DNA of 64,000 bases from Rhizaria sp. SCN 62-66 (lineage: Eukaryota), in assembly GCA_001724265.1 (NCBI GenBank), contig MEDY01000040.1, positions 1-64,000 of the forward strand. Direction: 5' to 3'. Below the pieces are notes generated by a model. The model was not told the origin of the DNA and did no database searches. It saw only the letters and a list, made by a program, of their open reading frames with translations. Below are positions 323-48,124 of the stretch, one piece after another; positions within the stretch are counted from its first letter, which is position 1, and each line of letters starts with the position of its first letter. The position numbers and the translations under genes were made by a program.

Positions 323-326
323 GAAG

Positions 327-407
327 TGTGCTAGACGGGGATCGAACCCGCGCGTCCGGAGACACTACGGCCTTAACGTAGCACATTAACCACTTTGTTA
401 CCAGCAC
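327..407 (-). tRNA. tRNA-Leu, anticodon AAG (type II, long variable arm), intronless
   Basis: Reverse complement folds as a cloverleaf: acceptor stem GTGCTGG/CTAGCAC plus discriminator A, D-loop with GG, anticodon stem CTACG/CGTAG around loop TTAAGGC, long variable arm, T-loop GGTTCGATCC. No encoded CCA. Confidence 0.93.
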
Positions 408-3108: not shown

Positions 3109-5854
3109 TCATGACGTGACGTTCTCCTGCGCGGCCATAAGCTCCAGCGCGCCAACAGCCGCTGGTCGTTCCTTGCCTAAATCCGCAAGTACACCGATAA
3201 ACTCTTCCGGAGACAACATCTCGCTCGCGGCATACGCGATGCTCGTCACCGAGCCCGGGACGGCGCCGAGACCCAGCCCACCGCCGTGCCCCGCGCCCGC
3301 GCCTCCGTGGCCTGCGTTGGCCGCGGCGGCCAGCTCCTGCAGGTTGACATACTCCGCGCACGTGCCACCGCCAAGCATGAGCACGACGACGGAGCGGAAA
3401 GCACCGCGGACGCGCGTCTCGAGTGGGGCCTGGCCGTCAGGCAGAGTCGACCCCACGCGCGGGTCTAAGTACAGAAACGACCGCGCCGGGTCGCCGCTGC
3501 TGGCAGCACTGCCCGCGGCCCCGCCCGCGCCCGCGGAGTGACCGTGAGCGGAGGAAGTGGTGTTGTTGTGCATCAGAGACTGGACGATGCGGGTGACGGG
3601 AAGAAGCACGTTGTGAGCGTCCTGCATCGTTGCTGACAGAGCCTGCGCAGACTGGTCAATCACAGAGCGCGCAAAGTCGAGGAAACCCTTGCCAGCGGCG
3701 CCCGCGGGGCCAGCGGCGGCCGCGGCAGTGTCCTAAAGAAGACACAAAGCGAAAAAGCAAGAGGATTCGCCAGAAATATAAGAAAATAATATAATAGAGC
3801 AAGATTTCACACAAAACAGGTATATAACAATGACACATGTTATTATCGAAGAGATAAGTACATTATAGAGCATTGGTGCGTTTTTGTTGTAATTCGATTT
3901 TAGCACGTACCTGACGGTGTCCACGCATGGCGTGCAGAGTCATCTGCGTGCCCTTGACGGCCTTCGCATAGCGAATCGCAGACGAAACAAGCGCGCTAAG
4001 CTGTTTGCCAGCGCTAGCGCCACCGGCAGCAGTCCCGCCAGCGCCTGACTCAATATCAGCAGCTGCAGCAGGCTTACTCGAGCTGCTGCTCGAGCTGGAG
4101 CCGCCGCCCATAAGGGCAGAGGCGAAGTCATCGTCAGCGTTGCCGCTCGAGCTGGAGCTGGAGCCGGCGGCCTTGTTCGCAGCCGCGGCCTTGTTCGCAG
4201 CCGCACTGTTGTCTTGCCCACTGTTGGCGCCGGTTCCGGCAGTCGGAGCGCCAGAGCGCGCGTCCTCCTTGGCAGCCTGGCGCTCAATAGCAGAGAAAAG
4301 CTCGCCATAGTACGTCGTTTCGGGTGTCTCAGCGCTGAAATAGGCAACCAACACAGCGCGCAGACGGTCCAATACACTGCCCTTTTCTTGCCGGATCATC
4401 TGCCCAAGCGTCGGCTTGTCCGCTTTGTCGCCGACGCCGCCCGCTGCGGCCGTGGCAGCGAGCGTTTCCTCCTCAAACGAGTGGAATTCGTCCAGCGCAC
4501 GGGCGCGGATCTGCGCAACAAGTGCGAAACCCAAGTTTGTGTGGATGTCGAGTTGCTTCTTGCGGCGCGTCAGCTGCGGCAGCGACGCTATCGCGCCTGC
4601 AAGCTCCGCCGACGCCGCCGCCAGCCCACCGCCGCCGCCGCTGCCGGACTGCTGCTGTTGCTGCTGCTGCGTGCGGCGGAGCACGTCGTCAGCCTCAGCC
4701 TTGTAGCGGGAGAGCGCGGCATCCACGTTCTCGGCCACGGAGGAGATCTGTTCGCCGGCATTAGCGGCCCAAAAGGGGTCGCGGGTATCGATCTCCCACT
4801 GCTCCTCGCTGTCCGCCCCGTGCGCGCCGCCGCCGGTGCTAGACTGCGAGTGCTGAGATTGTGACTGCGCCTGTTGGGCGCGGAACGACGCGGGCACAGG
4901 AACGCGGTTCGCGTGGAGTCCCAGCAGGTCCGCGATGAGCGAGACGTACGTCCACGCGTGGTGCACCATCGCAGTCATGTCCGTCTGCCTGTCCAGCACC
5001 ACCAGCAACGGCCGCTGCCCCGCGCCCGCGCCGCCGGGGAGGCCCAGACCAGAGACGGCGGAGACGGCCGAGTCCGAGCCCGTGGGGACGATGTCCGGCA
5101 CTGCGCGGAGCTCGCGGGCCAGCTGCGTCGCGACGGCGCGCGCGGGCCCCTCGGCCGACGAGCAGCGGATCACGGGCAGTGCGCCGAGGGCGGCGACGAG
5201 CGACGCGGCGGAGGTGACGGCGCGGTGTAGGTACGCTTCGCGGGCGCGGTCTGACAGAGAAGGCGCATAGAGAGCTGCGTAGCTGTGTGGGTGGGCAAAG
5301 GAGAGCAGACGTGAGTCGAGAGTCGTGGTTTCGGCCCACTGGCTGACGACGCGCGAGATGCGCCCCACGGCGGCGGGCCCCGCAGCGGCGGCGCGCGCGG
5401 CGAGAGCACGCAAGAAGGGTTCCGGTAACGACGTGAAATGCAGCTGAACGTCGTCGTACACACGGTTGCTGAGGTCCTTGGCAATGCGGGTGAGGTTCTC
5501 GGCCGTAGGGCGGCAGAAGTAGACCGCGGGTACGTCGTGCACGGGTTCGCGCGGAGAGTGCAACATCAGATAGAGAGTCACACCGAGCTTTTTGAGCTCG
5601 CCAACCGTGAAAAGAGTCGCCAGTACGTCGCGACCGTACGAGTCGTACACAAGCACTTTCCAGGCAGTAGAGGAGTCCACGGCCGACGCGGCGGAGGCCG
5701 AGCCCAGGAGGTGGTCGTGAGTCGCAGCCGCGGCGGCGGAGGCTGAGGCGGAGGCCGGTGAGACGCCGCTGGAGCCGGCCCCGCCGTCGCCGCCGAAGTG
5801 GACTGAAGTGAGCATGCGCGCCAGCTGCTCGCGCTGCCGCTGCTGGATGTCCAT
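3109..5854 (-). CDS. SLY1: Sec1/Munc18-family protein SLY1/SCFD1 (about 855 aa, 2 exons)
   Basis: Exons 5854-3911 and 3732-3109 join in frame across a GTACGT...TTTAG intron. Motifs WKVLVYD, GVTLYLMLHSPREPVHDVPAVYFCRPTAENL, RPLLVVLDRQTDM..HHAWTY..LIADLL, DPFW, KKQLDIHTN, VLMLGGG..EYVNLQ. Confidence 0.92.
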
Positions 5855-19126: not shown

Positions 19127-20986
19127 GCAAAGAAGTTAGGCCGCGAGAAGTTAAGCCGCGCAGAGGCTCGGTTTAGTTGGTGATATGTGGTGGCTGTGAA
19201 GGAGAGGAGCGAGATGCTCGCATCACAGTCACGGATGGTTTTGGTGTGCTGTTTTTTTAGTGATGTTGTGAGTTACAACGTGTAATTCCGATAATAAAGA
19301 TGAAACCATTTTTAATCAATATCGTTACAATTGTTTACAGTTTGAGTACTCTGTCACAGGTTCGATCAGGTTCGATGCCTTATGCGCAGCTGCATTATCC
19401 TTTTGAGAGTGATTAGGAGTGTTAAGCCACATTACGATGCGCCAGCCGATGTCGCTGTATTCCAGATACAAGTATTTGTATTTTTGATGGTTATTGTTAT
19501 TTCTCGAAACTGCCACTCGTATTTTGTTCGATGTTTTTTGTTCTTGCTGTGTTTTGAGGGCTGGGTAGATTGAAACAAAAAGAGTATTGAGTGTCGAGTG
19601 AAGAACATAACGTGCGATTTGAATTGAAGGGACGGCTGAGGCTGCATAAATATGGGTGGGGCAGACCCAGCTCGCGCCCTCACTCACGAGACAGTGTCAC
19701 CACTGCATGCAGCAAAACACAGCACAGCACGACAATAACGCAAAACAGCATAGCACGTTTGAGGGCGCAGTACAACATAACACGACACAACAACACAGCA
19801 CAGAAGGCTCCTCAGAAGCAAAACGTGCCTTGAGTGAAACAACAGCATGAACATGAACAAACTGCACGAGAGGGCAGTGGTAAAGTTACCGTGACAAAAC
19901 ACGATGTGCATAGCGTGGCGAAACAAGACGAAATGAGCAAGGTTTGTGGTGAATTGAGACTTGGGACTGACGAAAGATAAACGGCAGCACAATAAGTGCT
20001 GCGAATGTCAGTGCGAGTGCGAGAGTTGTGTGGTGTGATGTTACTGTTGGTATTGTGGGTGTGACATGACAGAGCGTGCGCAGTGGTGACGGTGAGAGAG
20101 AAAAAAGAAAGAGAGAAAGAGAAAGAGAAAACGAAATGTGCGCAAACGATTAAGAGACATGGTTTGACGGACAAAGCAAGGTGACTGGCACTAGAGTGCG
20201 ATTATGAAAGGAGGGCGGTTTAGAGAACAATCAACAAGAGCGAGTGCTGGCGCTTGTTGTGTAGGTGAGCGATTGTGAAAAGAGAGCGAAATGTGAGGCC
20301 AATCGAGATAAGATACGAGAACAGAACAGAGAAACGACGTGATAATGATTAGAGATACAAAACAAAAAGAGAGTAGCTTTGGTTGGGTGGTTAGACGTGA
20401 TATGTTTCGCCATGCGTAGCTTCACTAAACGAAACAACCATAACACACTTGCGTCGCGTTTACACTGCAACTGTGACAGTTGAGATGAGCGACTGAAAAA
20501 GCAAAGAAAAGCAAAGAAGATGATGATATCCGAGAAGGTAGCGAAAACTTGACGAGAATACACGCGAGTGAGAACGCACAACTGCAACGACAGAATCAGC
20601 GACAACAGTGATACTACGAGACGACAAAAGAAAATGATGATGCAAAGACACTGATGCTGGGGGCGTGCTTTGTTGGGAAGGAAATTTGAGAAGGCAAAAT
20701 GCGAAATATAGAGTTTTGCAATGATTTAAAATGAAACGAATGTAAGAAACAAACGAAAGAAAGAATATGATTGGATTCGGTGAATGAACAAAATATTGAC
20801 TTGCATGAACAAATATTGCGATAAAGTTGAGACCATTAGTAAGACGTTGCGTTGTGTTTCATGTCGAAACGCAACAATGATACATGGCCGGAGTAAGTTT
20901 ACTCAACAACACCACACACAAAGTACTGAGAATTGAGACTGTGTGTTGTGATGCTTAGACGTAGATTCGAGGTCCTGAGACCGCGT

Positions 20987-21706
20987 TTAGTTGCTCGCCA
21001 CAGCAACAGGCGCAGCATTCGCAGCCGTAGTCGCAGGGGCAGCAGCAGAGGCAGCAGTCGAGGAGCCAGCAGTGGCGGCGGCGGCGGCAGCAGCTGCCGG
21101 AGCAGCAGCAGACTTGGTGTTGTTCTGGGCGTTATTGCTGTTGTTTTGCGGCGGATGCCAGAGTGGACTCACCTGATACGGGTGTGGGTATGGCCGCTGC
21201 CGCTGCTGCTGCTGCTGCTGGTGGTTGTGGCGGGGGTGATGGTACTGCGGCGCATAGTGCGGCTGATAATGCGGCTGAGACTGAGGCTGGTGTTGCTGAA
21301 GGGCGTACGACTGCTGCGGGTGCTGCGGGTGCGGCTGGTAGTGGTGCGGCTGGTACTGCGGCGCATAGTGAGGAGGCGGGGGCTGGTAGCGGTACTGTTG
21401 CGGCTGGTGCGGGGGCGGCATGTGCTGCTGGTACTGCGGGTGCGGGTGCGGGGCGGCGCCGTAATAGTGAGGAGGCGGGGGCGGGCTGCGGGGCGGGTAG
21501 GCCGCGTAGTGCGTCGGAACAGGGTGGCCGTGCACTGCATACTGAGGAGGCGGGGGCTGCTGCTGGTAGTACTGGGGCGCATACTGCTGCTGCTGCTGCT
21601 GCGGAGGCTGAGGCTGCTGGGGCTGAGACTGAGATTGAGAGGGGTACTGAGCCGGGTGAGGAGCAGTGTACTGAGTCGGGGGCTGTGAAGAGTACTGAGG
21701 CTGAGA

Positions 21707-21749
<43 letters not shown>

Positions 21750-23183
21750 GGGGGCGGGTAGCTGCCATTGTCGCTGCCACTGCTACCACTGCTACCATTG
21801 CTACCGTTGCCGCTGTTGTTGTTGTTGTTACGGCTGTTGTTGCTGTTGCTGTTGCTGTTGTTGTTGTAGCGGGGCTGGCCGTTGTTGTTGCGTGACAGCT
21901 GCTGAGCAGACTGAGACTGAGACTGAGACTGAGACACAGGAGCAGAAACAGAGCTACGAGTCTGACTCTGGCTCTCGCTCTGGCTCTGGCTCTTAGCAGC
22001 CCCAGCGACAGAGGCGTCAGTGGCGGCGACGGTGGAGACAGCAGCAGCAGCAGCCGCAGGAGCAGGAGCAGGGACGGTGTTGCTACCGCTAGGCCCACTC
22101 TCACTCCCACTGGTAGCCTTCAAAGCCGCACTCGCTCCGGCGCTCGCAGTCGCATTCGCGGTGTTGTTGCCGTTGTTGCTGTTACTGGTGCTTGCAGTGG
22201 AGACAGGCGCCGTCTTGACGGGAGGCGCAGCGGCGATCGCGGCCCACACGCCCTTGGGCGCCTTCACAGCGGCCGCAGCGTCGCTGGCGCGGCTGGCGCT
22301 GTTGCTGCTGCTGCTGCTCTCATTCTTCTGCTCTTGCTGCTGGCGGCCGCGGTGAGCGCTGTCAGCGGACTCACTCGCCGCCTCAGCAGCGGTGGCGTTG
22401 GCGGCGCTGCGGCGGCCGCGGCCACGGCGGCCTTTGCTTTCACGGTCACCCCCGCCGCTTTCCGCAGCACTCGCGCTCGCACCAGAGTCAGCGCTGTCGG
22501 CGCTCTTGTTGCTGCAGGGCTTCGCGCCGTCCTTGGTCTCACTCTCACTGTCGGCCTTCTTGGCAGCGACGGCGGCGGCAGCAGCAGCGGCGGCGGCGGC
22601 GGCCTCAGCCTCTGCCTTGGCGGCGGCATGGGCGGCGGCGATGATGGCCGCTGCAGTCGGCGGCGCAGGCTGCGCAGCCACAGCCACAGAAGCAGTTGCG
22701 GCAGCGGCAGGCGCTGACACAGGCGCACTCGCGGCAGCTGCGGTCACAACAGCAGCAGCAGGGGCAGCCTTGGTGTTCTTGCCGCCGCCCGTGTTGCCGT
22801 TGACGGCGGCTGCGTTAACGCTGCTTGCGCTGCGGGAGCCAGAGGCGTTGCGACGCCCGTTCGCGTGGACCGTCCCGTTAGCCGCGCCAGAGTTCGCCGC
22901 AGCAGCAACAGGGACGCTGACGCTGCCGTTTCCGTTGCTGTTGTTGCTGGCGATGCTCGCGGAAGCGTTGCTGTTGCTGTTGTTGCTGGTCTTGTTGGCA
23001 GTCAGCACGCGCACTGCAGGCCCCGCCGCGTTGGAGTTACTGTTGGCGATGCCGACGCTGGCAGCGCTGCTGCTGGGAGAGACAGGCTTCACAGGGTGAC
23101 TCTGGCCCTGAGTCTGGTCCTGGCTCTGCTGAGACTGAACCTGCTGCTGAGGTTGTGGCTGGCCGCGGTTTGAACCAGAGCCA

Positions 23184-23222
<39 letters not shown>

Positions 23223-23992
23223 AGAGCACGATTGGCGCTAGCCCCACGCGCTACACGCTGCTGCTGCTGAGGCTCAGGCTGATGCTGTGGCTGAGCTTGC
23301 TGCGGCTGCTGAGACAGAGCCTGAGGCTGGGATTGAGGCTGAGGCTGAGAACGACGCGGCTGCTGCAGCTGCGGCGGCTGCTGCTGCTGCGGGTACGGAC
23401 CCAACTGCTGTTGCTGCTGCCTCTGCTGCCCGTTGCCTCTAGTGCTGTTGTTGCTAACATTGCTGTTGCTTTGGCTGTAGTGGTTGGGGGGCCGGGCACG
23501 AAGGTACGTGTACCCCTGACTGGCGTGCGCCCGCGCCGCCGCAGCCGCCGCGGCGCCTTGGGCCGTCGCCGCCGCGCGCGCCGCCGCCGTCACCGTGTCG
23601 CCGTTTTCGCCCCGCACGGGAGCAGGCGCAGACGCAGCGGAGTTCGCGGACTGGGTTTGAGACTGAGGCTGGGTTTCGTCAGAAGGCACAGCAGCAGCAG
23701 CAGCGGACTTCATAGCGGCGTTGGCGTCCGTGGCAGCAGTAGCTGCGGCGGACTGAGCGTCGTCAGAGGCAGCACCGCTGCGGCCGTGGGTCTGACCTGC
23801 AGGGGCAGCAGCAGCGGCGGCGGCGGCGGCGGCGGCCTGGGCGGCGTGAGCGCGGTCGCAATCAGCGTCCGTGACGTCGTCAGCGCTGAGAGCGGCGGCG
23901 GCCTTCGCGGCGGCGGCGGCGTTGGCCTCCTCCTCCTCCTCAGCGGCGGCGGCGGCGGCGGCGGCGAAGATGATGGCGCGAATGACGCTGTG
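20987..23992 (-). CDS. In-frame 1001-codon continuation of the CCCH gene beyond its TAG (Ala/Asn/Gln-rich, with a Q/P/Y/H prion-like C-terminal part)
   Basis: Frame is open from the codon after the TAG (23992) to TAA at 20989-20987, with the same codon and composition style as other exons. First ATG is 93 codons in, at 23713. Confidence 0.75.
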
Positions 23993-25660
23993 CTAGCTGT
24001 TGTCGCCGGCGCCGAGCGCGCGCGCCAGCGACAGAGTCAGAGCGCGGGGCAGCTCGCCCTCGCTGTCAGACTCGGCAGCGGTCGCGGTCTCAGTCGCAGT
24101 GGCACTAGCCGCACGCTCAGTCCCAGCCGCAGTGGCACTGGTGGAGTCAGGCTTGGCGTCACTGGCGGAGTCAGCGCCAGTGGGGGAGTCAGGCTTGGAC
24201 TCGGCTTCAGACTCAGTCTTGGGCTCAGCATCGGCGCCAGCGGTCGCAGCGCTACCGTCGCCGTCGCTGCCGCTGTTGCTGTTGTTGTTGTTGCTGTCAC
24301 TTGCACTCGCAGGCGCGTTGCTGGAGGTCTCCGGAGTAGCAGGCGCAGCGCCGGCCGACTCAGTCTCGCTGCCGTGCTCGCCAGCGCTCTTCTTGACTTC
24401 ACCCACCGCCGCATTGGCACTCGCTGTGTTGTGACTGTTGGCGTTGTTAGCATTGCTGTTCGAGTTGTTATGACTGCTGTTGTTGTTGTTCGACTTGTTG
24501 GCGGATGCGTTGACCGCGGCAGCACGGCGCAGCACCTCCGCCGCCGCCGCGCTGGCCGCCGCAACCACGGCCACCGGCCGGTCGCCACCAGCGCAGGGGC
24601 CCGAAACCGCGATGGCCGCGGCCGCGGCCGCGGCCACCTTGTCTCCGTTCGCCGCCGCGGCCGCAGCTGCCGCGGCCGCCGCGGGCGAGGGCGGCGCGAT
24701 GCCGGCGCCGTTGGTGCGCGCCAGCGCGGCTGTGATGATTGTCACGGCGTCGGGGGACTCGGCAAGCTGCTTCGCGGTGAGGCCGGTCGCCGAGGTCACC
24801 GCGGCCACGGCGGCGGCGCGCGCGGCGGCGGCGGCGGCGGCGCGGGCCGGCGCGGAGGTCGTGATGACGGCGGCGGCGGCGAGCGGGCGGGCCGTCGTGA
24901 CGACCGCCGTGCCGTGGGGCGCGGAGGGAACGGGGCCGAACGTGCGCTCGACGCGGACGATGTTTTCGCTGGGGGAGACGAACCACGTCTGCGTGTCGTT
25001 GTTGACGCGGAACTCATCGTGCAAGTACGTGCAGCGCGCGCCGAACTGGCACGTGCCGGTCCGGTGGAAGTTCTCGCAGGGAGTCGTCTTGTACTTAATG
25101 TGGTACGCACGCGGGCGCATGTCGTCGTAGCCGTGGGCGAAGCGGCAGTTGGACTCGTAGGCACAGTGGCCCTTGCGGAAAGAACGGCAAAACTCGGTTT
25201 TGTAGTTCTCTTCGACGATGTTCGGCGCTGAGGACGAGGAGGAGTGACCGTGAGCGCCGTGAGTACCGCCGTGCTTGCCGTGATGGTGACCGTGATGGCC
25301 GTGACCGTGGCCGTGATTGTTGTTGTTGTTGTTGCTGCCAGACGTGTTGGAGCTGTTCCCAGAGCTGCCGTTGCCGTTGCCGTTGCCGTTGCTACTGTTA
25401 GAGTTGGGGACAACAACAATGCCGCCGCCACGGGCGCGGTACGGCACCGCGTGCGGGGCAGCCGTCGTCGTCGTCGTCGATGTCGCACCGTGACCGTGAG
25501 ACAGCGGAGGGTGACTGTGAACAGGGCTGCCACGGGGGCTGCTGTTGCTGTTGTTGTTGTTGTTGTTCTGATTTGCCATGACAACGACGGGAGAGGAAGG
25601 GGAGCCAGAGCGGGAGCCAGGGCCACTGGAGGGAGCACCGGTCGCAGTAGCAGAGGGCAT
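23993..25660 (-). CDS. Tandem CCCH zinc-finger RNA-binding protein, TTP/ZFP36 type (555 aa to the TAG)
   Basis: NYKTEFC-x7-C-x5-C-x3-H, an 18-aa linker ending KYKTTP, then C-x8-C-x5-C-x3-H (about 25015-25205). ATG 25660 is uncertain: an acceptor-like CAG at 25740-25738 and a GTATG at 26018 suggest an upstream intron. Confidence 0.88.
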   Translation of the reverse strand: MPSATATGAPSSGPGSRSGSPSSPVVVMANQNNNNNNSNSSPRGSPVHSHPPLSHGHGATSTTTTTAAPHAVPYRARGGGIVVVPNSNSSNGNGNGNGSSGNSSNTSGSNNNNNNHGHGHGHHGHHHGKHGGTHGAHGHSSSSSAPNIVEENYKTEFCRSFRKGHCAYESNCRFAHGYDDMRPRAYHIKYKTTPCENFHRTGTCQFGARCTYLHDEFRVNNDTQTWFVSPSENIVRVERTFGPVPSAPHGTAVVTTARPLAAAAVITTSAPARAAAAAAARAAAVAAVTSATGLTAKQLAESPDAVTIITAALARTNGAGIAPPSPAAAAAAAAAAANGDKVAAAAAAAIAVSGPCAGGDRPVAVVAAASAAAAEVLRRAAAVNASANKSNNNNSSHNNSNSNANNANSHNTASANAAVGEVKKSAGEHGSETESAGAAPATPETSSNAPASASDSNNNNSNSGSDGDGSAATAGADAEPKTESEAESKPDSPTGADSASDAKPDSTSATAAGTERAASATATETATAAESDSEGELPRALTLSLARALGAGDNS

Positions 25661-28137
25661 GAGGGTAGAAACGGGGGCAGAAATGGTGCCTTGTAGTTGT
25701 GGGGCTGGGGCGGTGACGCCAGCGGTGACTTCCGAGCCTGCGGGGGAGGTTATGCAGTAAAAATTGGCAAAAACAGGGGAGATGTGAGTCGGAGAAAATA
25801 CTAGGGTGCGTTGTAGCATAATATGCGCAGTTTGTAGCACATTCATGCGCATATAGTATGCGAAAGATAACTGGCTGAGCACTGCATTGCGTTTGTGGTG
25901 GGATTGGAGCAGCTAAGCAAAGAGCAGCGTAATCAAGTGCCGTGTCCCATTCACTGCGCACATGCAGTTGCAGCAGCGCAAGTTAGTATGCACACAGGCT
26001 AATACGGTCACAACATACGAGGTTGTGCCGAAAATGGCTTGTTGTAGCGGCGTGCTCGGAGTTCGGGGGTTGAGATTTTGCAAGCGCATGTGTGGCCTGA
26101 ACAAGATGAATTCGGCAATAAAAATAACACAAACAACAATTTTCAACACGAATACACGGTGATACTATTTGCTATAGAAACAATGGTGACGTTCTGTGGG
26201 CCACATACCGAATAAGCCCGGTTGGGTCGCTGACATCAGGTTCTGCGGAAAAGAGGTGTCAAAGCAGGGCCGTTTTGAAGGATAGAGTGAGTCACCGTAA
26301 AATATTACACGCATTAGAGATAGAAAACGCACGATTATGTATAATTCTTGTGATGATATGCATCTTGACGGTGTTACACCCGCGCGTTGCAAAGTTACAA
26401 TCGCTCACCTCGTCAAGCATTCCGGTCGAGTTCGTTCGTGGTGTGGCTACGGTTGTCACGACTCACCAATTGAAGAAATCGTGGCTAAAACCCGGTCTAA
26501 TGATGTCAGTAGAGATTGATTCTGAGATACGCTTTATATTTACTTGCGGCAATAACGAAAACATAATATTCATTTGTTGAGAGTGATATATATATTGTGA
26601 TTTCGGCGGGGCGGAACGCTTGTTCGGTCCTCAAGATTGACATGACGATGGTCATCTGCATCGACAAGCACGGTATAAGAACAAGCCCCAACTCTTCAAA
26701 CAAGTTTCAGTGATCATGATAGTTGCCGAAACCACAGGATACGCATTCTGGCGTGCATACCCTTTGAAACATCACAACTGCGTGACTTGATGACGAAATG
26801 CAGTCAGCACCTGCGCTCTGCTCGACTCGGCATGCGCACGTGTTGGTGGTGGCACGGATGTATGAGTCAAGGAGGCGGCATCAGCTGGTAAACAGTACTG
26901 CTGACGTCACACAGAATGATCAAGGAAACAATTTCAGTCGCGATTCAGCTCCAATACTAGTATGCTGCTCCTCACGAGATGATGCTCCGCGTGACCTCGA
27001 ACACGCTGACCACCTGCACAGTACACCGACTTCATCACACTGCTTCGCAACTTTCCGCTCCTTACAAATCTCAATGTACATTTCATCGGATTGTTTGTGT
27101 TTTGGAAAAGTGTGTCCTTATGAAATATGTTATATGCGGAGTAAGCTTAACGTTCGTACTCGTTTGATATGATCGCATCTCCACAGATCCACGACCAGCA
27201 GAGAAGCGCCACGTTCAACAAAAATCCAATAGCAAACAACAACGAACAGAACAACGACCAACAATAGCAACAACAACATCTTCACACGTTCTTATCAAAA
27301 GACCCACTAGCGCGGTGTCGCGGCTTCCTTGCCCGCCGCACGTTATTTGACACCATGAAATAACTAACAGTTTCTCCCAATCCGGGACCAACCGTGGGCT
27401 ACGAATGACAAGTCGCGTCGTCGCCGGCTGAACCGACCAACAGGTTGATTTGTGAGAATGCTCGATACCAGTGGGGAGCGGTCAAAGCGATGAGTTTGCC
27501 TCCATTAAGATGGTGGGTTCCGCCTTACAAAACCGCCAAAAGATAGATAGCACTTGTACAACACTCACCGAAATAACAGCAAATTTTAGGAGCAGCACTT
27601 TTGAGACACATGAAGCTTTACGAACCACTTTTCTGCCTGCCTGCCTGAGGATTGAGGTAACCAATGATGTGGGCAGGACCGAAAAATGTGTTGGCCGGCT
27701 GACCGCGACGACAGGCCTCTGCGACTTGCTACTTTGAGTCTCCATATCTTCCTCCGTACAACGTCAATTGAGAAGTTTTGAAGATCTGACGGCACATATC
27801 ACGCTAATATGCCTTAATTCCTTTTTGTATTGCACCAATGGCTGTGTTGGTGTCACGAGTGCCAATTTTGATTCTTTCCTCATCTGTGACGCTCGTGACC
27901 ACTCCCTTCCCAAAGCCTGGATTTACCGCTCCACCAGCATTCTCACGCGAACAATTTCTTCCATATTCACCCACACGACCCCATTGCCTATTATTATAGC
28001 CCTGTTACAGCGCGTGTAACGTTCTTTATCTTGTCCGGCAGACGCCTCAACGTATCGCAAGCGTCGTCGACTTCGATCTCTTTCCTCCTCGACCCGCGTC
28101 CAACCGCTCTGCGTGCAGGCCTCACTGTTGTTGACCG

Positions 28138-31100
28138 ATGAGCTCCGCAGCCGCCGCTGCTGCGGCCTCCATTAACGCCGCTGCAGCCTCGTCTGCGCAG
28201 CCATCGCCGCAGTCCCCCTCTGCCCCCGCCGCGGGCCCTGTGGTTTACTCGACCATGTCCAAGCGCACAATTACCGTCCCCACAGTCTCGGACGCACTCA
28301 AGGCTATCCCGGTGTTCTCCGCGCAGCTCGAGCAGGCCGTGGCCGAGGCTGTGCCCGATAAGGCGCACGACCCGCTCTACGCCGCCGACTTTGACCCCAT
28401 CGCATACCTCAACAAAGCCGTACGTCCTCTGCTCCACCAACGCAACAACAACATTTCATCATTAAGCGTTCTATCTTGATGCATCTTGACTTCCAGAGTA
28501 TGATTTTAAACCAAGTTATCAACATCGCCTTAATTTAGCTAACAATTCTCTTTTGACATCTTCATTCTATGCTCTCTGCTCTATTCTTTGTTTTCTATTC
28601 TCTTCTATTTTCCTCCGCTCTGTTTAGTTCCCCGACGAGCAGTCTCTGTCTGGCGGCAAGCTCGACTCATTCCTCCTCAGCGTGCGCCGCGACATTGCCA
28701 CGCTCAACGAGACAGCCCGCGTCGAGGTGCGTGCGCACTCCGACTCGCGTTCGCAGACCCAGACCGCGCTTGTCTCTGCCTCGTCATCTATCGCCCAGCT
28801 TTCCTCCCGGATCTCGGACATCAAGGCCAAGGCGCTGCAGTCCGAAGCCATGGTGCACGGCATCTGCCGTGACATCACCGCGCTCGACCACGCCAAGCGC
28901 CATATCCGCGCCACCGTCACCGCGCTGCGCAACCTGCACATGCTCGTGACGGCGCTGACGCATCTTAAGGCGCGCACGGACCGCCGCGACTTCGCAGAGG
29001 CCGCGCGCCTCTTGGCCGCAGTGGGCGATCTCTTCACCCTGTTCGAGCCCTACCGCAGCGTGCCCAAAGTGCGCGACCTCCGCGCGCAGGCCAACGGACT
29101 GCGCGACCAGCTCCGCGTGCTTGCGCTCGGCGACCTCAAGTCCGCGCTGCTAACCACCGCGCCGTCTGCGAGCTACGACGACGTGGCGCCGCACTTGCAC
29201 AACGCGTGTCTGGTGCTCGACGCGCTTCCGGCGCAGCACAAGCGCGCGTTCCTGACCGCGTTTCTCCGACAGCAGCTGGAGCAGTACGAGCAGCTCTTCG
29301 GGCCCCGGTCTGATGCGTACACTGTGGAGGCTATCCCGCGTCGGTACGCGTGGGTGCGCCGCGAAGCCAAGGCGTTTGACGAGAAGTTCGGCGCGGTGTT
29401 CCCGCAGTCGTGGCATGTGCCCGCGCGGCTGATGCAGGAGTTCTGCGTCGTCACGCGGACCCACATCTCCGCGCTGCTGCAGTCGTCGCCGCACGGGGCG
29501 TACGCGCTCATGGACGTCACGGCCACGGGCGCCGGCGCGGGCCCCGTTGCGGCCGCGGCGGCGAACAAGCCAGGCCCGACGGTGCCCGGCAAGGCGCTCT
29601 TTGGCGGCGCGATCCGCGTGCCTTCGCTCACCAGCAACAGCAGCAGTTCTTCTAGCTCTGCGCCCACTGGCGCTGGCGCTGGCACGGGCGCGTCTGCTGC
29701 TGCGGGCGGCGAGACCGGCGCGGGCAGCGCCGCTGGCAACGCTGATGACGACTCTGGCCCGCTCACGGCGAGTGACATCGGTCTGTCATCCGGGTTACCG
29801 CCTGTTTCCGACGCGGACGTGGCACTGCTGACGTCATCCATGCTAAAAACGGTCGAGTTCGAGCGTGAACTCACCAACAAGTTCAAGGACTGCCTGCCTC
29901 CGTCGCCCACCAACAGCGCCGCCAACAACGCCTCTGGTCCCGGCGGCGCGGGCGACAGCAGCAGCACTTCTAGCGGTGCTGACTCGGCTTCATCGGTCAA
30001 GACGCCCGTGCTCGTGACGATGGCGACCGGCACCACGGTCACCCCCGCGGCCGCCGCGATGGCCGCCGAGCCCACGGGCGCGAGCGTGGCTTTCACCGTC
30101 ACATTCGAGCGCGCTATCTCGGGCTGCTTCGTGCCGTACCTGGGCGGCCTCGTCTTCACAGAGCGCCGCCAGCTCAATGAGCTCCTGGACCGCATCTCCC
30201 GCGACGAGCAGTGGACCGGACCGCTGCCGCCCGCCGCCTCGGACGCCGACGCCGTGCGGCCGTCGCAGGAGCAGCAGGACCCCGAGGCGACGGGCGGCGA
30301 GCGCTGGCTCAAGCCGCGGCACCGCTTCGCTGGCGCGGACGAGCTGTTCCTGTACTACAAGAAGTCGATGTCGCACTGCGCCAAGCTCACCACGGAGGCG
30401 CCGTTCCTCGCGCTGGCCAAGGAATACTTGCGCTCGCTCGACCAGTACGCAGTGCTGCTCGAGTCGCGGACGCGGCGCCGCGAGGGACGCGCGCTCACGC
30501 GCGCCGAGCGCATCACGGCGTGCCTCGCGATCAACACGGCCGAGGGGATCGTTGAGGTGCTGCCGAGCTTCCTCGAGTCCATCACGGCCAAGATTGCGCC
30601 CGCGCTGGCGGATAAGGTCACTGCGGCGGCGCAGTCGGAGCGGTTCGAAGCCCTCGCGTCGCGCGCGATTGCGTCCTTGGTGTCCTCGCTGCTGGCGCGC
30701 GTCGGTGTCAAGCTGCACTCGATTTCGCGGACCAACTGGGGCGCGTTTGACGCCGTGGGCGACTGCTCGTTGTTTATCAGCCAGACCGTCGCTGCGCTCC
30801 ACGACGAGCTCGCGCTGCCGGCGACACTGCTGAGTCCTAAGTACCACGCGTTCCTCTGCGCGCAGGCCTCCGCGGGCGTTCTCACGGCGTATCGTGGCGA
30901 GCTGTTCCGCGCGCGCAACGTTGCCGCCGCGGCGGCGCAGCAGCTCGCCGTCGACCTCCAGTCGCTCCGCACGGGGCTGCTCGACGCGCCCGGCGTGTTT
31001 TTCGACACCAACACGTGCACGATCGGCATGCGCACCCCCGCGTCCCGCGCGTCCGCGCGCATGTACTCGCGCTCCGTGTCGCGCGAGCTCGGCCACATCG

Positions 31101-32632: not shown

Positions 32633-35600
32633 TCACTGCGAGTAGATGTCGAACAGCGCGACACCCGATCCCTGGAGCGAGTCCACATCGATGCCGGCCC
32701 CCGCTGCTCCGCCCCTCTCAACGGCAGGGCTTTGCAGTGCGCCCCCCGCGGCCCCGAGGTCACCACCGCGGCCGTCGCCGCTGCCGCCGACGCCGGGGGC
32801 GGAAAGCTGGCCGCGCGCGCGGCGTTCCCTAAGCACACGACGCTTCGGCTTCGCGGCTGCGGCGGCGGCTGCGGCGGCTGCGGCGGCAGCGGCGGCGGCA
32901 GCGGCGGCAGCGGCGGCGGCGATGGCGGCCTTATCGCTCATGTTATACTGTGCAGGCTGCTGCTGCTGCTGTTGTTGCTGCTGTTGTTGCTGAGCGAAAT
33001 GCTGCTGCTGGAGCTGATACTGCTGCTGCGCGTAGTCGGGGTATGAAACGATCTCGCTATAGATATCACTCGCAAGCGCGCCGCTGCCGCCCGGAAGCTG
33101 GTGAAGCTGCGCCTGAACCAGCAGCGCCTCCGCAGCCGCAGCAGTAGTCGCAGCTGCCGTGTCGGCGTCGTGAGAAGCAGAAGGAGCATTCGCGTCACCA
33201 AGCAGGGAGACAGGAACGTTGTAGCTGCTACTGTTGCTGTTGCTGCTCAGCACACTGGCGCTCGGGCTAGGACTGGCACTGTAATACGCAGCACTCCCAC
33301 CGCCAACGTTGTTGCTGTTGCTGTGGGGGTGGCTCTCGTCGTCTGTCGTCGTCGCCGTCGCAGAGCTCGCGGCGCCAGTCGGGCCCGCAGTGGGCGGCGT
33401 GGTCGCGGCCGCCGTCGTCGCCGCCGACTGCTGCTGCTGCTGTTGCTGTAGATGCTGCATTGTCCCGTTGAGTAGCACACCGTCGCTCGTACCAGTGCCA
33501 TTCACACTGTTGTTGCTGCTACTCGCACTCGTGTTCGAGACCGTGAGCAGCGACGGGCAGTTCTCAGCGACACCGGGCAGCGTACCCACGGAACCACTGC
33601 TGCCCACGGTCACCCCGGCGGCGCCGGAGCCCATGGGTCCCGCGTTCGCAGCGAGGTTCAACGCGCTTACGGTCATCCCCGCGCCGGCGCCAGCGCCGTT
33701 TAAGTTAAGCCGCAGCGCGGTCTGTTGCGGGGTCTGAGGCACGCTTCCGGGCACACTTCCGGCGCCGCTGGCGCCGACGGCGGTCAAAAGCCCAGAGTTG
33801 CCCCCAGAAGCAGCGCCGGCTCCGGCTCCAGCTCCGGTGTTCAGAGCGATGGAGGAAACGGCACCACTGTTCGATGAGCCAGTGGAGCCATTGGAGGCTA
33901 AGGCTGAGGCTGAGGGGGGCAGAGGAACGCCAGCCTCGGCTGCGGCGGCGGCCGCGGCGGCCGCCGCCGCCGCAGCGACTGCGGCCGCCGCAGCGGCCGT
34001 GGCCTTCTTGTCCTGCCGCTCCTGCGCCTTCTTGGCGCGCCGTTTCGCGGCCTTGGCACGGATCTTCTCCTTTTGCGCGTCGAGGAATTCGCGGTGGGAC
34101 TCCCACATGATTTCGAGGAACTCCTCGAACTCGACCGTGCCGTCGTCGTCGACATCGACTTCGTCGAGCATCGCCGAGAGCTCTTGGGCTGTGTACAGGC
34201 CCTTGTCCGCCAGCGCCTAGTCGGGAGAGAAACAAAAGTTACAGAAAGTGAGATATATTGCAAATAAAGCCGCGGTCAATTGAGTACTACCTAAGACAGA
34301 AGTTACGATATGTCACATTGATGGACAGTTTAAGGGCGGTTTGATGTGGTATATGCAGTCAAATGCAGTGTTTTCATATGATTGTTGCGTACCTGCGAGA
34401 GGTCGTCGAGGTCGACGCGGCCCGAGTTGTCGACGTCAAGTTTGCTGAAGGCTGCCCACATGCGCTCTTCTTTCTCTGATAGAGTCATAGAGACGTACGA
34501 AAGCAGCAAGTCCTCGTAGGAGAGGTACCCGTCGTTGTTAACGTCCACACGCTCCATGATTTGCTGTGAGTGTACGTCGATGCAAAAGAAGGAAAATGTG
34601 ATAAAGAGAATAAAGTGAGGGATATATCGTTCCAATTACAATGAGTTTAGATGATCATCCCGTTCATGCACGTAAAAAAACAACATTTAACGAACAAATA
34701 TTTCACGAATATATATCCTGAGTAATGAAGATATAGCGTACCTGAACTTCGCGCTCCCAGAAGGCATCCGACTCGACCAAGTCTTCCGTGGCCGCGGCGC
34801 CGGCATCCGACGTCGTCTCACTATCATTATCGCCGTTATCATCACCGTCACCGTCGCCGTCGCCGTCGCGTTTGTCGTCGCCGTCGTTGGCGTCACCGCT
34901 GTTGTCGCGGTGAACCTTGTTTGAGTTCGAGTCAGCGGCACCAGCGCCGTCGGTCTTCGGCTTAACAGCACCACCAGCAGTAGTAGCAGTGGGCGCAACC
35001 ACAGCGGAGCCCGTGCTCTTCAGTCCGCTATTGGCCGCCGCTGCCACCGCAGCAGCAGTGGCAGCGGCAGTGGCCGTGGTGGCGGCGATGGCCGCGATGG
35101 GGGCGCCTGTGATTTCGTCCCTCGCCTGCTGCTCCACGTAGAACTGCTTCATAACGCGTCGCAAGTCCTGGATCGAGACGAACCCGTCGCCGTTGCTGTC
35201 CATGGCCGCAAACGACGACTGCAGCTGCTGCAGCGATACATCAGACAAACAGTCAACCATCAAGTGCAGCACGGCCTGCTGGAACTTGCACTTGACGTCG
35301 AACGTGCTGATCGCTTTCACGACACGAGGATCGATCATGCTGCGCTGGGACGCCGCGCCCGCCAGCCAGGGGTGGTTGAGGGCCTCTGCCGCGGTGAGAC
35401 GTTGGCCAGAGTCAGAGGTCAGGAGACGCGAAAGGAGGTCCTTAGAGGCGTCGGAGACTGGGATCTCGCTCGGGAAATGCGCCTTTGGATGGATATATAC
35501 AACGCAAATACAAGTGAAATAAAAATTATGATTTGTAATTAGGTTAGATAGATACATAATTGTTATAATATCCAATATTTGATACGATTTCCGAATACTA

Positions 35601-37987
35601 TTGTCGTTTTCGACAGTGAAGCGTGACTTAACGCAGTAGCAAGCAAGTCCTACGACGTTAATGCATTTGCAGAAGAGAAACATATCGAGAGATAAAGTGA
35701 AGCGAGACGTACGCCTGCGCCGGGAAGCACGCGCGCATCGAATCCGCGCAAAATGAGCTGGAAAATGCGCTTATCGGCAGCGGCACGGCCGTCGAGCGCG
35801 GCTGCGCTGGGGTGGCGTGATCGACCTGAGCGTGGATGCGGTACAAGTCAAGTCAGAAAAAATAAGCGTTTACAGTGTGATGAATGAATGAAGTGAGAGT
35901 CAGCGAGATACAGAGTGCACAGGCAGTCATATGGAATACAAGGATAATGCATTTTAGTCAAACACAGCACAGAACAAAATTAATGTTGTTTCGCATCGAC
36001 ATCAGTTAACAACACAATAGTGCAAAAGCACAGTTAAACATGTTCATTGTGCGTATTCGCGGTGAAAGAAAAACGTACCAAGCCCGCGGCTGCTGCGCCT
36101 GCGGATGTTGCCTTGCTGTTGCGCCGCCACAGTCGTCACGGCAGTGTTCGCATTCACAGCGTTGCTATTGGCGTTGTTGGTATTGTTGTTGTTGTTGCGG
36201 GCGTTGGAGCGAGCACGGAGGGCCGACCCGGCTTCGTTGTCGCTATCATTATCATCGCTGTAGTTGCCCGCCGCCGCGGCCGCCGCAGCAGCCGCCGCCG
36301 CCGCTGCCGCCGCCGCCGCGGCCGCCGCAGCAGCCGCAGCCGCCTTGGCTCTCGCAGTCCCACCTGCAGTCGCCGCCGCTGCAGCAGCGCCAGCGCCGGA
36401 GGCAGGGGCAGCGGCGGAAGCGGCGGAGGCCGCGGCAGCAGGCGCCGGCAGGGCAGGCACCGCAGCATTGTTGCCGTTGTTGTTGTTGTAGGTGACTGTG
36501 AGCGAGTCGCTGCGGCGCACGTCGAACGGCGGGTACCCGAAGAGCATGATGAACATCACGACTCCGAGCGACCACAAATCGCACGACTGGTTGTACGCGC
36601 CCGCGAGGACTTCTGGTGCGATGAAGTAGGGCGTGCCGGTGGCGGCCGTGAAGTGGCCGCGGTGGCCGATGAACTTGGACAAACCGAAGTCGATCAGCTT
36701 AATGGGCGAGGAGGGGCCCGTGGAGACAAAGAGGAAGTTGTCGGGCTTCAGGTCGCAGTGCACGAGCTTCATCGAGTGCATGTACGCCACCGCCGAGATC
36801 ATCTGGTGCAGCAGCCGCGCCGCGTGGTGTTCCGAAAAAACCCCGCGCAGGCCGGCGTTGATGAGCTCGCCGCCCGTGCAGAGTTCCATTACGATGTAGA
36901 AATAGAGCGAATCCTCGAAAAACTCCTTGAATTCGATGATATTTGGATGCCGCAGCATCTGCATAATGCGAACCTCACGCTTGAACTGAGCCAAACCGTC
37001 CCATTTGAGCGCGAACTTGACCTTCGGAATGATTTTGCACGCGTATTCGACGCCTGTGCGGCGGCAGCGGGCCTTAACGACCTTGCCGAAGGAGCCGGGC
37101 TCGCCAACAGGCTCCTTGCCCAGTTCGTACGAGTCTGCAATCGCCGCGGTGGGGCCGAGGACCCAGGCGCCCGACCGCAAGGCGCGGGGGTCCGGGTGCT
37201 GCGGCTGCTGCTGCTGCTGGGACTGCTGGGAGTGCGACTGCTCGCGGTCACGTTCGTCGACGGGGGGGGAAGCGACCGTGGTCACCGCAGCGCTTGGATG
37301 GTGGTGACTGGCGGCCTGCTGCGGGCGGTGAGGCTGGTGGTGGCCGTGGGCGTGCGCGTGGTGGTGGGTCTGGTGACCGTGGGCAGCCGAGTGAACGAGA
37401 GCAGCCGTCGCAGATGGGTTCACAGCAGCATTCGCGGCAATATTGGCGTTGGCAGTGGTGTTGGCGTTGTTGTTCTCGGGGAGAGCGGTGGGGTCGTGGC
37501 CAGGATGGGAGCGAACAGGGAAGTTTTGCTGCAAGTGCTGCTGCTGCTGCCAGCCAGAGGCCGAGGCGGCTGCAGAGTAATACGAGGCAGTGCCGCCGCC
37601 GCCACCCATCATCGCTGCAGCAGCAGCTGATGACGACGATGACGATGACGCGAGAGAGCCGGAGTGGGGGACGACTGCGTTGCTGTTGCTGTTGCCGGTC
37701 AGACTGCTGCTGCCGCTGTCATAGCCGTCGCCGCCGTTGGCGTTGGCGGCGGCGGCTGCGTTAAGAGCTGCTGCGCGCTGCCGCTGGTACTGCGCTAGCT
37801 GCGCCCCGTGCGCGGCCGCGTCTGCCACCAGGGCAGCGTGGCCGCCGTGGCCGCCGCCCGCAAGCGCGAGGGCGGTGGTGGACGGGATGGGGTCAGTGGC
37901 GCTGTCATCAAGCGTTTGGGGGCCGGAGGTGCCGGCGAAGAAGGCGAGAGGCCCGGATGGGGATTCCTTAGTGCATGTGTTGCCCAT
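32633..37987 (-). CDS. CDPK: Calcium-dependent protein kinase (kinase + 4 EF-hands), about 1505 aa, 5 exons
   Basis: Exons 37987-36079, 35825-35713, 35482-34742, 34563-34393, 34216-32633, all phase-consistent. N-terminal MGNTC (acylation-like). Kinase motifs GEPGSFGKV, ACK, HCDLKPDN, DFG, GTPYFIAPE, DLWSLG. EF loops DSNGDGFVSIQD, DVNNDGYLSYED, DVDNSGRVDLDD, DVDDDGTVEFEE. Confidence 0.92.
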
Positions 37988-42508: not shown

Positions 42509-44811
42509 TCAGTCGATTTGCTCAATCTTAACGCTGCTCGCCGCAGGTGTGCCGCCACTCGCGTATCCGTACTCCTGACTGTTATAGCTTGCGTACCCAT
42601 GAGTACCGTGGCCGTGGGTACCCTTGCTGCTCACAACAGTCATCCCCCGCTCCACCTTTCCCACAGCAACAGTCTTCGCCACAACACCGCCACTGTAGCC
42701 AGCGCCACTCTTCCCGTGACTGTCACCGCGGCTGCTGCTGCTGCTGCTGCGATGAGTGTTGGCGCCGCGAGCGTTGGCGTTGAGACTGCGTTTGTGTCGC
42801 AGCGCGCGGTCCTCCGCCTCGACCCGCGCACAGTGTCGCGCCATCTCCCTGAGAAACGCCGCCACCCTGGCCTCGGCTTCAGGCCCTTCTTCTGCCAGAC
42901 TGGGCGCTAGAGCGACAAAGGCTTCGAGCAGAGGCGCGTGCCGGCGCAGGTCTGCCACGGCAGCCGCGATGCCGGCGTCGGGGCCCGAGGCGGCAGAGGC
43001 GGCTGCGAGGGCCGCGGCGTCCGCGGCGGCGGCGGTGTCCGCGTCTCCTAATGATGCAGATGCCGCAGACGCAGACGCAGGCGCAGAGCTGCTATTGTTC
43101 GCAGTGTTGTTGCTGTGATTCTGAGAGCTGTTGCGCCAGAGCTGCGCCGAGTTTTCCTCACTACTGCTGCTGCCAAGTCCACTATAGTCCCCAAGGAAGT
43201 CGCCATTTCCATCGTCTTGCTCTTCAATAACGCAGTCAACGGCATCGCCGTCAGCGCGCGCCCCGTCCAGCGCGATTGCAGTGAGTCCCGCCAGGTCCCG
43301 CGCCGTCCCGGCCGCCGGCAGCACCGCCCGCCCGGCCTGCATTTGTGCGGCGACGGCGGCGGCGCGCGCGACAAGCGGGGCGGGCACGCCGGCGGCGCGG
43401 GCGCAGCCGAAGCCGAAGCTGTTGCCGCCCCAACCGGGCGCGACGCGGAACAGAGGCACCACGGTCGCGGTTGAGATCTCGGGCAGAAGCGGCCGCGACT
43501 CGCTCGCAGTCGCAGTGTCGCCGGCAGCGCTCGCACTGCTTGAGCTAGAGTTAGAGCCATTAGGTCCGCCTGTGGGACTCGCGTTTGTTGTTACAAGAGG
43601 AGCGTCGTGAAGGGCGGTCTTGGCGACATATTGCATGCTGAAGAAGCGGACCCTTGGACTCTCCTTGACGAGCCCCTTCGTCGCGATCTCGTGCAAGTGC
43701 GTCGCGAACATCGTCTTGGGGCACTGCCCCGTCGGACGCCGGTCGAGCCACCTCAGCACGGCCGCCGCGAGCGCCACGCCGTCGGGCCCGTTGGTGCCGG
43801 CGCCGAACTCGTCCAGCAGCAGCAGCGTGGCGCCCGTGGCGGCCCGTAGAGCCCGGCCCGCGACGGCAACGTCGGCGGCAAAGGTCGACACGCCTCGGGC
43901 CGCGCAGTCGACGCTGGGGGCGCAGACCGCGATCGCGTCGCAGACGCCGATGACGGCCTCGGCGGCGGGGACGAAGGAGCCGATGTGGGCCAGGTAAGCG
44001 ATGACGCCGGTCTGGCGCAAGAGGACGGACTTGCCGGAGTTGTTGGGACCGGTGATCACGTGCACCGTGCCGTGGCCACTGCTCGCGGCACTCGAGCTCG
44101 CACTGCAGCTGCTGTCGCGATCGCCGCCGCCGCCGCCGCCGCCGCCGTCGAGCGTGGTGGTGTTGGGCACGAACGCGTCGACCGCCAGCTCCGCCAGCGG
44201 ATGCCGTCCGTTGACAATATGTAGCACTGAGCTATCGGCGGTCACCACGGGGCGGGTCAACCCGCGCTCGCGTGCCGCTACAGCCAGCGCGGCCACTGCG
44301 TCGAGCTCCGCCGCGGCAGAGGCGAACCTCTCCACGGCCGGCGCCGCGGTTGTCACCGCTGCGGCGAGGTGCAAGAGGACCTCGCGCTCGGCGTCAGCGA
44401 TGCGGGTGTGGAGGTCGCCCAGTTCGCGGCACAGCTCGTCGGTGCGCGGCGTGGAGTAGAAGGCGTAACCCTCGGCCACGAGTTCCAGACGCACTCCCGG
44501 CGGGAGTAAGCTCGGCTCAGCTAAAGGAGGCGGGGGAGGCGGCGGCGGCGGCGGCTGCGTCGGGAAGCGACCGCCGCCGCCATTGCCGCCACCGCCACCG
44601 CCGCGAGGGGTGTGGGCTGAGTAACCGTTACCGCGGGGCGTGTTGTGGCCGTTGCTGTTGACGCTGTTGTAGTATGTGGCGAGCGTGTCAGCCTCGACTT
44701 GTTCCCGCGCGACCGCGAGTACTGAGGCGACTTGACTTCGGTACGCAGCCTCGGCCTCGGGACCCCACGCGTACCCGGGGTTATGACCACCGGCACCATG
44801 CGTACTGAAAC

Positions 44812-44842
<31 letters not shown>

Positions 44843-47800: not shown

Positions 47801-48091
47801 GCGGTCAATCTCTTTGTCGTCGCTGTTATCGCTGTCGGCGTTGACGTTGGCGTGGAATGCAAACGGATCCTCATCATTATCAGCATCGTTGTTGCTGTTG
47901 TTGCTGCGACTTCGACTGCGACTGTTACCGCGAGTGTTACGCCTGTTGTTATCGACGCGGAGCCGCGCAGTGAGCTGCGGGAGGCCACGCTTGGCGGTCG
48001 AGTTAGAGCTAGCGGCGCCATCGTGCTTGCGCGGACCGAGAGTTGAAGGCGGAGGCGGGAGGGCCAGCTCATCATCAGAGTCGGTCTCAGC

Positions 48092-48124
<33 letters not shown>

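Follow-up and report, generated by a model that had tools for sequence, protein, structure and literature searches.

A single in-frame TAG in a TTP-like tandem CCCH zinc-finger gene of Rhizaria sp. SCN 62-66: a probable one-gene locus with truncation and readthrough as candidate explanations

The stretch of DNA analysed here, the window, comprises positions 1 to 64,000 of contig MEDY01000040.1 (GenBank assembly GCA_001724265.1) from Rhizaria sp. SCN 62-66. Its minus strand carries a gene for a TTP-like tandem CCCH zinc-finger protein, the open reading frame (ORF) of which is split by one in-frame TAG. Read from the ATG at 25660 the frame contains exactly two stops, the TAG at codon 556 and a TAA at codon 1558 (20989-20987), giving 555 + 1 + 1001 codons, and the TAG leaves 64% of the 1557-codon frame behind it. 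The gene strand reads ...GAC AAC AGC TAG CAC AGC GTC ATT CGC GCC ATC ATC TTC..., with the TAG at 23995-23993, and the next in-frame ATG is 93 codons downstream at 23713. An earlier sequence-only reading by a model had described a CCCH ORF ending at this TAG with the same frame running on for 1001 codons to a TAA. All of its coordinates are borne out, as are the GC-rich runs of Ala and Glu codons that it saw between the TAG and the next ATG (GC 0.756 over the 93 codons). The other two sense-strand frames over the downstream stretch are closed within at most 317 codons, and a stop-free frame of 1001 codons is more than chance would be expected to give at the local composition. There are two start candidates, ATG 25660 and ATG 25852. 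The coding score is about zero upstream of about 25730, which favours the former, and this start is provisional. The features of the locus are listed in Table 1.

Table 1. Features of the finger gene locus in window coordinates
Feature	Position	Strand	Description
Upstream ORF, 555 codons	23996..25660	-	S/N/G/H-rich N-terminus; tandem CCCH fingers with the conserved motif behind them; then some 300 aa of low complexity, A/S/N/T-rich
Tandem zinc finger	25019..25189	-	regular expression and spacing, Pfam PF00642 twice, hhalign 99.9%
Conserved extension directly after finger 2 (DEFRVNNDTQTWFVSPSENIVRVER)	24944..25015	-	subfamily mark, consensus EFWLVSPSENLVRVE
In-frame TAG, C next (TAG CAC AGC)	23993..23995	-	covered by contigs of metagenome runs X1, X2 and X4
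93-codon stretch, TAG to next ATG	23714..23992	-	GC 0.76, Ala/Glu runs, coding-like, same frame
908 codons, ATG 23713 to codon before TAA	20990..23713	-	all low complexity; no Pfam domain, no homologue found
P/Q/Y/H-rich prion-like tail	21221..21760	-	codons about 1301-1480 of the read-through frame; per 100 aa, P+Q+Y (PQY) fraction up to 0.75 and Tyr 0.15
TAA closing the long frame	20987..20989	-	lower-GC flank after it: 0.47 over 100 nt, 0.38 over 279 nt

The coding character of the sequence does not change at the TAG. A codon model trained on ten confident ORFs of the window (10,357 codons) gives the gene frame 0.80-0.93 bits/codon in all 60-codon windows between 24112 and 23663, without a drop at the TAG, and the other two frames across the region negative scores. 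The 93 codons behind the stop reach 0.97 bits/codon in the same frame. For true coding windows of equal length the mean is 0.53 (sd 0.20, n=104; a slightly optimistic figure, as the windows were drawn from the training genes), wrong-frame windows score at most 0.12 (n=208) and intergenic windows, taken in their best frame, at most 0.86 with a mean of -0.18 (n=56). The composition agrees. Coding DNA in the window has 60-72% GC and spacers 42-50%. The GC content behind the TAG is 0.78 over 100 nt and 0.76 over 279 nt, compared with 0.29-0.61 and 0.35-0.50 after the ends of 15 other long ORFs; before other ORF starts it is 0.41-0.66. Coding score and GC together therefore make the 93-codon stretch unlike a 3′ untranslated region, a spacer or a promoter of this genome, in keeping with the earlier remark that the sequence after the TAG differs from the spacers. 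The in-frame coding signature past a stop by which readthrough genes are recognized is accordingly present, at 0.97 bits/codon and with 1001 open codons.

Introns of this organism have GTACG donors and AT-rich bodies of 100-200 nt, and a scan of the window for GTAYG finds many such donors at GC-to-AT transitions. On the minus strand between 26018 and 21584 there is none. The TAG falls inside 29 in-frame GT..AG spans of 40 nt or more within 400 nt, none of which has a GTAYG donor of the organism's type. The absence of a GTAYG donor or AT-rich intron that could remove the stop, noticed in the sequence-only reading, is thereby confirmed.

Pfam family zf-CCCH (PF00642) matches the upstream ORF twice (E 2.3e-14). 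Finger 1 has the form C-x7-C-x5-C-x3-H, one residue shorter than in the relatives, and finger 2 has exactly the C-x8-C-x5-C-x3-H form that characterizes both fingers of TTP/TIS11-like proteins. Proteins of the TTP/TIS11 type are defined by a fixed spacing of 18 residues and an (R/K)YKTEL lead-in before each finger. The spacing here is 18 residues, which fits; the lead-in to finger 1, NYKTEF, fits as well, and that to finger 2, KYKTTP, fits in part. A HMMER search of 1.84 billion representatives returned 5516 hits at E≤0.001, the best orthologue-like one at about 120 bits over the core only. No close orthologue was found in the searched libraries, where no relative exceeds 56% identity and similarity is limited to the finger core. 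Subfamily counts were taken from 153 proteins among these matches, 20 of which combine a single tandem finger with a EFWLVSPSENLVRVE-type motif in lengths of 167-711 aa. The mark of the subfamily, SP(S/T)E(N/Q) about 15 residues after a single tandem zinc finger, is present in the upstream ORF. Residues S, P, E, N, R and E of EFWLVSPSENLVRVE are invariant in 16 sequences; the carriers have the working labels P0007, P0012-P0019, P0023-P0029, P0033, P0045 and P0047. Alignment of the upstream ORF to a 15-member subfamily profile with hhalign gives a probability of 99.9%, E 4e-35 and 51% identity over 94 columns. The tandem CCCH proteins with this motif apparently form an unnamed subfamily, and the assignment of the gene as TTP-like, first made in the sequence-only reading, is upheld by the paired Pfam matches, the finger spacing and the profile alignment.

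In most relatives within the subfamily the fingers are followed by a tail with a high content of P, Q, Y, M and H. The 335 residues from the fingers to the TAG have a PQY fraction of only 0.05-0.07. Behind the TAG it is 0.50 at codons 701-850 and 0.75 at codons 1301-1450, the latter with a Tyr content of 0.15, which agrees with the prion-like tail suggested earlier. P/Q-rich stretches above 0.6 occur in only two of the 17 long ORFs in the window, of which this one alone is rich in Tyr. On composition the tail may well belong to the finger protein. The downstream ORF contains no Pfam domain, and since hhalign finds no alignable similarity between the relatives' profile and this ORF (probability 0.2), the likeness to the relatives' tails is one of composition only. 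Protein word searches over limited length ranges gave no homologue for tail residues 478-640 or for the 100 residues on either side of the TAG (taken as X). A protein-atlas look-up of the tail was uninformative (best score 0.77), a word-indexed search of the finger region gave one weak match and was flooded by low-complexity words, and a scan of metagenome contigs with the whole 555-aa protein, using N-run patterns, confirmed nothing. A second metagenome scan, with the core alignment, yielded 80 loci. The sole close one, L001 (100% identity), is a 2605-nt contig of the same organism whose end falls within the gene, short of the TAG. For 161 residues across the TAG (as Gln), a single-sequence AlphaFold2 model has a mean pLDDT of 55, too poor to judge whether helices on either side pack together.

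Is the TAG genuine? The organism occurs in bioreactor and wastewater metagenomes, and Logan contigs of four runs were aligned to 20500-26300: X1 (2015, possibly the source of the window itself), X2 (2016, from the study of X1), X4 (2025, from another study; its kind is not on record) and X5, a polyA-RNA run of the same study as X4. Contigs from X1 (record 6), X2 (record 13) and X4 (record 20) cover the sequence from 23980 upward including the TAG, with no other letter. No alternative letter is found at 23993-23995 in contigs of any of the four runs, contigs being assemblies that drop minor variants. With three runs from two studies (2015, 2016 and 2025) showing the TAG unchanged, a single base-call error, one of the alternatives raised at the outset, is now unlikely. 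Repeats at 23798-23991 were skipped in the alignment, leaving just 13 aligned letters at positions below the TAG, short of the 31 needed to count it as bridged. By record length the TAG-bearing contigs run on past the aligned part for 171 nt (X1, X2) or 32 nt (X4). Logan contigs of all runs break at low-complexity repeats. By arithmetic, those bearing the TAG extend to about 23809 and share only about 25 nt with the next contig, inside (GCG)n near 23809-23833. Because of this break at the GCG repeat, it is the original assembly that connects them to the rest of the tail.

The compared populations are almost, not fully, identical. Relative to the window X4 has a 3-nt insertion, an extra GTT after 24463 that adds one AAC codon in an Asn/Ser-rich stretch, and in X5 position 24959 is changed (G>A), which on the gene strand is a synonymous ATC>ATT. 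Strain differences of both sorts are what one would expect to see in a coding gene. A polyA-RNA contig of X5 covers 22288-22528, about 1.5 kb behind the TAG, with no differences. The bins 20500-20887 and 25932-26125, outside the coding sequence, have zero RNA depth though X4 covers both. No RNA contig in X5 covers the TAG itself.

Several readings have in common a single gene with a genuine TAG in frame, and taken over all of them we hold this view with fair confidence. We judge the locus to be one gene rather than two because the coding signal continues past the TAG and there is no intron near it. We tentatively put first, with rather less than even confidence, a young nonsense allele that truncates the protein in a near-clonal population and shows only basal leakage. 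The gene would then encode a TTP-like tandem CCCH RNA-binding protein over a frame of 1557 codons with a single genuine UAG at codon 556. Ribosomes would stop at the UAG, so that the main product would be a protein of 555 aa retaining both fingers and the post-finger motif. A recent point mutation would have cut off 1001 codons of the same gene in a tolerant, disordered region, and the TAG allele would have become fixed or dominant in a near-clonal wastewater population. The tail would be made only through the small basal leak expected at UAG-C. We infer both the young age of the TAG and the absence of selection for readthrough. In favour of this reading, neither a CARYYA context nor a 3′ structure was found at the TAG, and 555 aa lies within the length range of 167-711 aa seen in the 20 subfamily members. 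The intact downstream frame says little on the age of the TAG because the compared populations are nearly identical.

Several observations weigh against a simple truncation. It would remove a part typical of the family, because the P/Q/Y-rich tail lies only behind the TAG (0.75 as opposed to 0.05-0.07), and such a Tyr-rich tail is found in just one of the 17 long ORFs of the window. Samples separated by 10 years and by an indel both have the TAG; it is followed by C, a leaky context, and all 1001 downstream codons are still open. A nonsense allele had been listed among the alternatives in the sequence-only reading. It fits the data if fixed in a near-clonal population, and that part stands; the present data do not separate a young truncating allele from readthrough maintained by selection.

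Selected readthrough of the UAG is a possibility, though we consider it doubtful. Most ribosomes would make the 555-aa protein and a regulated fraction would read the UAG with a near-cognate tRNA. It is equally doubtful, if conceivable, that the P/Q/Y-rich tail of the resulting 1557-aa isoform alters partner binding or entry into condensates. The continuous coding frame across the TAG, in both codon scores and GC, speaks for selection, as do the family-typical P/Q/Y tail found only behind the stop and the stability of the TAG across samples of 2015, 2016 and 2025. So do the polyA-RNA at 22288-22528 and the zero RNA depth in the two bins outside the coding sequence. Drosophila kelch offers a precedent for a very long extension. 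C directly after a stop is a leaky context, and C is the base after this TAG, which also counts for readthrough. The remaining signals do not. The hexamer behind the TAG is CACAGC and the CARYYA context is absent. No stimulatory 3′ structure was found in a 139-nt segment that includes the TAG and 133 nt downstream, where the folding z-score is +1.14 and 176 of 200 shuffles fold at least as well. Of the stimulatory features associated with readthrough genes, whether a 3′ context (CARYYA, CUAG) or a structure, only the C at +4 fits.

The relatives do not help the case for selection either. The metagenome loci are no more than 55% identical to the gene in the core, L001 apart; 76 of the 80 match the finger pattern, and in three of the 76 the ORF runs off the contig. 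In the remaining 73 the frame after the stop is open for only 0-143 codons, reaching 100 or more in only three; ten of these 73 extensions are cut by the contig end and are lower bounds. Long extensions after the stop are thus not a habit of the family, an observation that says nothing on selection of this particular one. The tails of relatives show no alignable similarity to the downstream ORF (hhalign probability 0.2), no close orthologue was found that could show conservation, and the 555-aa product is already of a length typical of the family. A limited literature search gave no report of readthrough in a tandem CCCH finger gene. The proposal of programmed readthrough, made when the TAG was first noticed, is left unsupported by the hexamer, by the z-score of +1.14 and by the extensions of relatives at no more than 143 codons. 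Folding of the 3′ flank, then suggested as a check, finds no structure against shuffles.

An assembly artefact is improbable. It would involve a misjoin or collapse at the GCC/GCG repeat, or the window would show one of two alleles, the other having a sense codon. The breaking of Logan contigs at repeats, with an overlap of about 25 nt inside (GCG)n, would be compatible with this, as would the loss of minor variants from contigs and the 13 aligned letters below the TAG. Set against it, the TAG and 171 nt (X1, X2) or 32 nt (X4) behind it lie in one contig in each of three runs, depth differs little among the pieces of any one run (24-36 in X1), the reading frame is maintained through the join and no other letter occurs at the TAG.

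We also give little credit to two genes, in which the TAG closes the finger gene and a 908-aa low-complexity protein has a gene of its own starting at ATG 23713. The normal family length of the 555-aa product would be accounted for, an ATG does lie 93 codons downstream, and a shared frame has a one in three chance. The gap between the two would, however, be the only GC-rich spacer in the window (0.76, as opposed to at most 0.50 after ORF ends and 0.41-0.66 before starts), it scores as coding in the shared frame (0.97), and the downstream ORF has no domain or homologue that we could find. A second cistron, one of the alternatives initially listed, is unlikely given a 279-nt gap that is GC-rich, coding-like and in frame.

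A change in the nuclear code, by which TAG would be a rare or ambiguous sense codon and the gene would encode 1557 aa, carries similarly little weight. In its favour the C-termini confirmed by Pfam never use TAG, with TGA in the PP2C gene and TAA in those for phospholipase B and the amino-acid transporter, and the one other ORF ended by TAG (54403-55833) has no family match. This change of code is unlikely because, with TAG read as Gln, none of the other real ORFs in the window gains more than a few dozen codons and because there is no tRNA with anticodon CUA in the window, 64 kb being a small sample. The TAG is also the only one in frame in about 12,000 coding codons. The ORF at 54403-55833 lies on the plus strand, lacks a Pfam match and is the only other long ORF that ends in TAG (55831-55833). 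There too C is the next base, and another stop follows 11 codons later. Removal or change of the TAG in the mRNA, through an unconventional GC-rich intron or base editing, is very improbable, for although the 29 in-frame GT..AG spans make splicing formally possible, none has a GTAYG donor and real introns here are AT-rich and 100-200 nt long.

The neighbours of the finger gene in the window, encoded on both strands, include genes for Sec1, Vps53, phospholipase B, PP2C, a MutS homologue, an amino-acid transporter and a kinase with EF-hands. Several of them show the intron type described above. The Vps53 gene (+) has a 94-codon exon 1 at 28138-28419 followed by a 208-nt AT-rich intron (GTACGT...CTAAC...TTTAG) that ends at 28627. 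The first residue encoded behind the acceptor is also the first of the Pfam Vps53_N match (profile position 13), and the gene is therefore cut short in a list of ATG-to-stop ORFs. The MutS-like gene (42509-48337, -) is split into ORFs 47345-48331 and 42512-47251 in one frame. Between them lies AT-rich sequence with a donor, GTACGC, at 47395, and there is another at 47204 (GTACGT). The kinase domain in ORF 36047-37987 (-) stops at profile position 204. The next ORF, 34706-35683 (-), encodes its end (profile positions 220-263) together with EF-hands, and there are GTACG donors at 36078 and 34741. The region 32633-37987 (-) is probably one CDPK-like gene split by introns, to which ORF 32636-34171, starting inside an EF-hand, may also belong. 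In the Sec1 ORF (-) a GTACGT donor at 3910 with AT-rich sequence after it lies just before the apparent TAA (window 3863-3910). The Pfam Sec1 match ends at profile position 393 of 575, and the true C-terminus is probably in a further exon. The only RNA gene identified in the window by ARAGORN and Rfam is a tRNA-Leu (anticodon AAG) at 326-407 (-).

What would each outcome mean? We regard it as rather doubtful, though conceivable, that UAG readthrough without a known motif or structure switches a TTP-like mRNA-decay factor between 555-aa and 1557-aa forms. Doubtful in the same degree is the accompanying proposal that the switch controls a P/Q/Y tail absent from the short form and placed, in the long form, behind a low-complexity spacer of about 750 aa. 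If true, termination efficiency would set how much of the factor enters condensates or engages the decay machinery. Under selected readthrough the availability of a prion-like tail would depend on termination efficiency, and the extension would be among the longest cellular readthrough extensions known. We know of no other case of readthrough in a TTP-like decay factor. A truncating allele would be ordinary, and would indicate that the finger core with a spacer of about 300 aa suffices for the lineage over at least 10 years. In both cases the locus lends itself to a clean test, with one gene, one stop, no intron and no frameshift.

The protein resembles TTP/ZFP36/TIS11 in having two CCCH fingers 18 residues apart, YKT-type lead-ins and disordered flanks. 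It differs in finger 1, which is C-x7-C instead of C-x8-C, and in the EFWLVSPSENLVRVE-type motif after finger 2, a motif that we do not know from TTP itself. TTP/TIS11-like proteins bind AU-rich elements and promote deadenylation. In TTP, disordered regions and a C-terminal NOT1-binding helix recruit CCR4-NOT (PMC12350847). Inspection by eye of the 555-aa form identified no clear C-terminal NOT1-binding motif. The end of this form (ELPRALTLSLARALGAGDNS) is only vaguely like what we take to be that motif.

Compared with ordinary nonsense alleles, the locus is alike in its single stop, intact frame and disordered region downstream of a functional domain. It is unlike them in that 64% of the frame and a family-typical tail are lost, and yet this is the sole form seen in samples spanning 10 years. 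Leaky stops of the tobamovirus type carry a UAG-CARYYA motif (PMC3542737). The UAG and the following CA are alike here, and positions 3 to 6 of CACAGC do not fit. In Drosophila kelch, readthrough of a UGA yields a 160 kDa ORF1-ORF2 product besides the 77 kDa ORF1 protein (10.1101/2020.06.22.165522). There are stimulatory 3′ stem-loops in kelch, the readthrough is conserved among flies, and blots have shown the long product. The finger gene has a UAG, no 3′ structure was found, and it is known from sequence alone. What it shares with kelch is the arrangement, one stop between a functional ORF1 and a very long in-frame ORF2.

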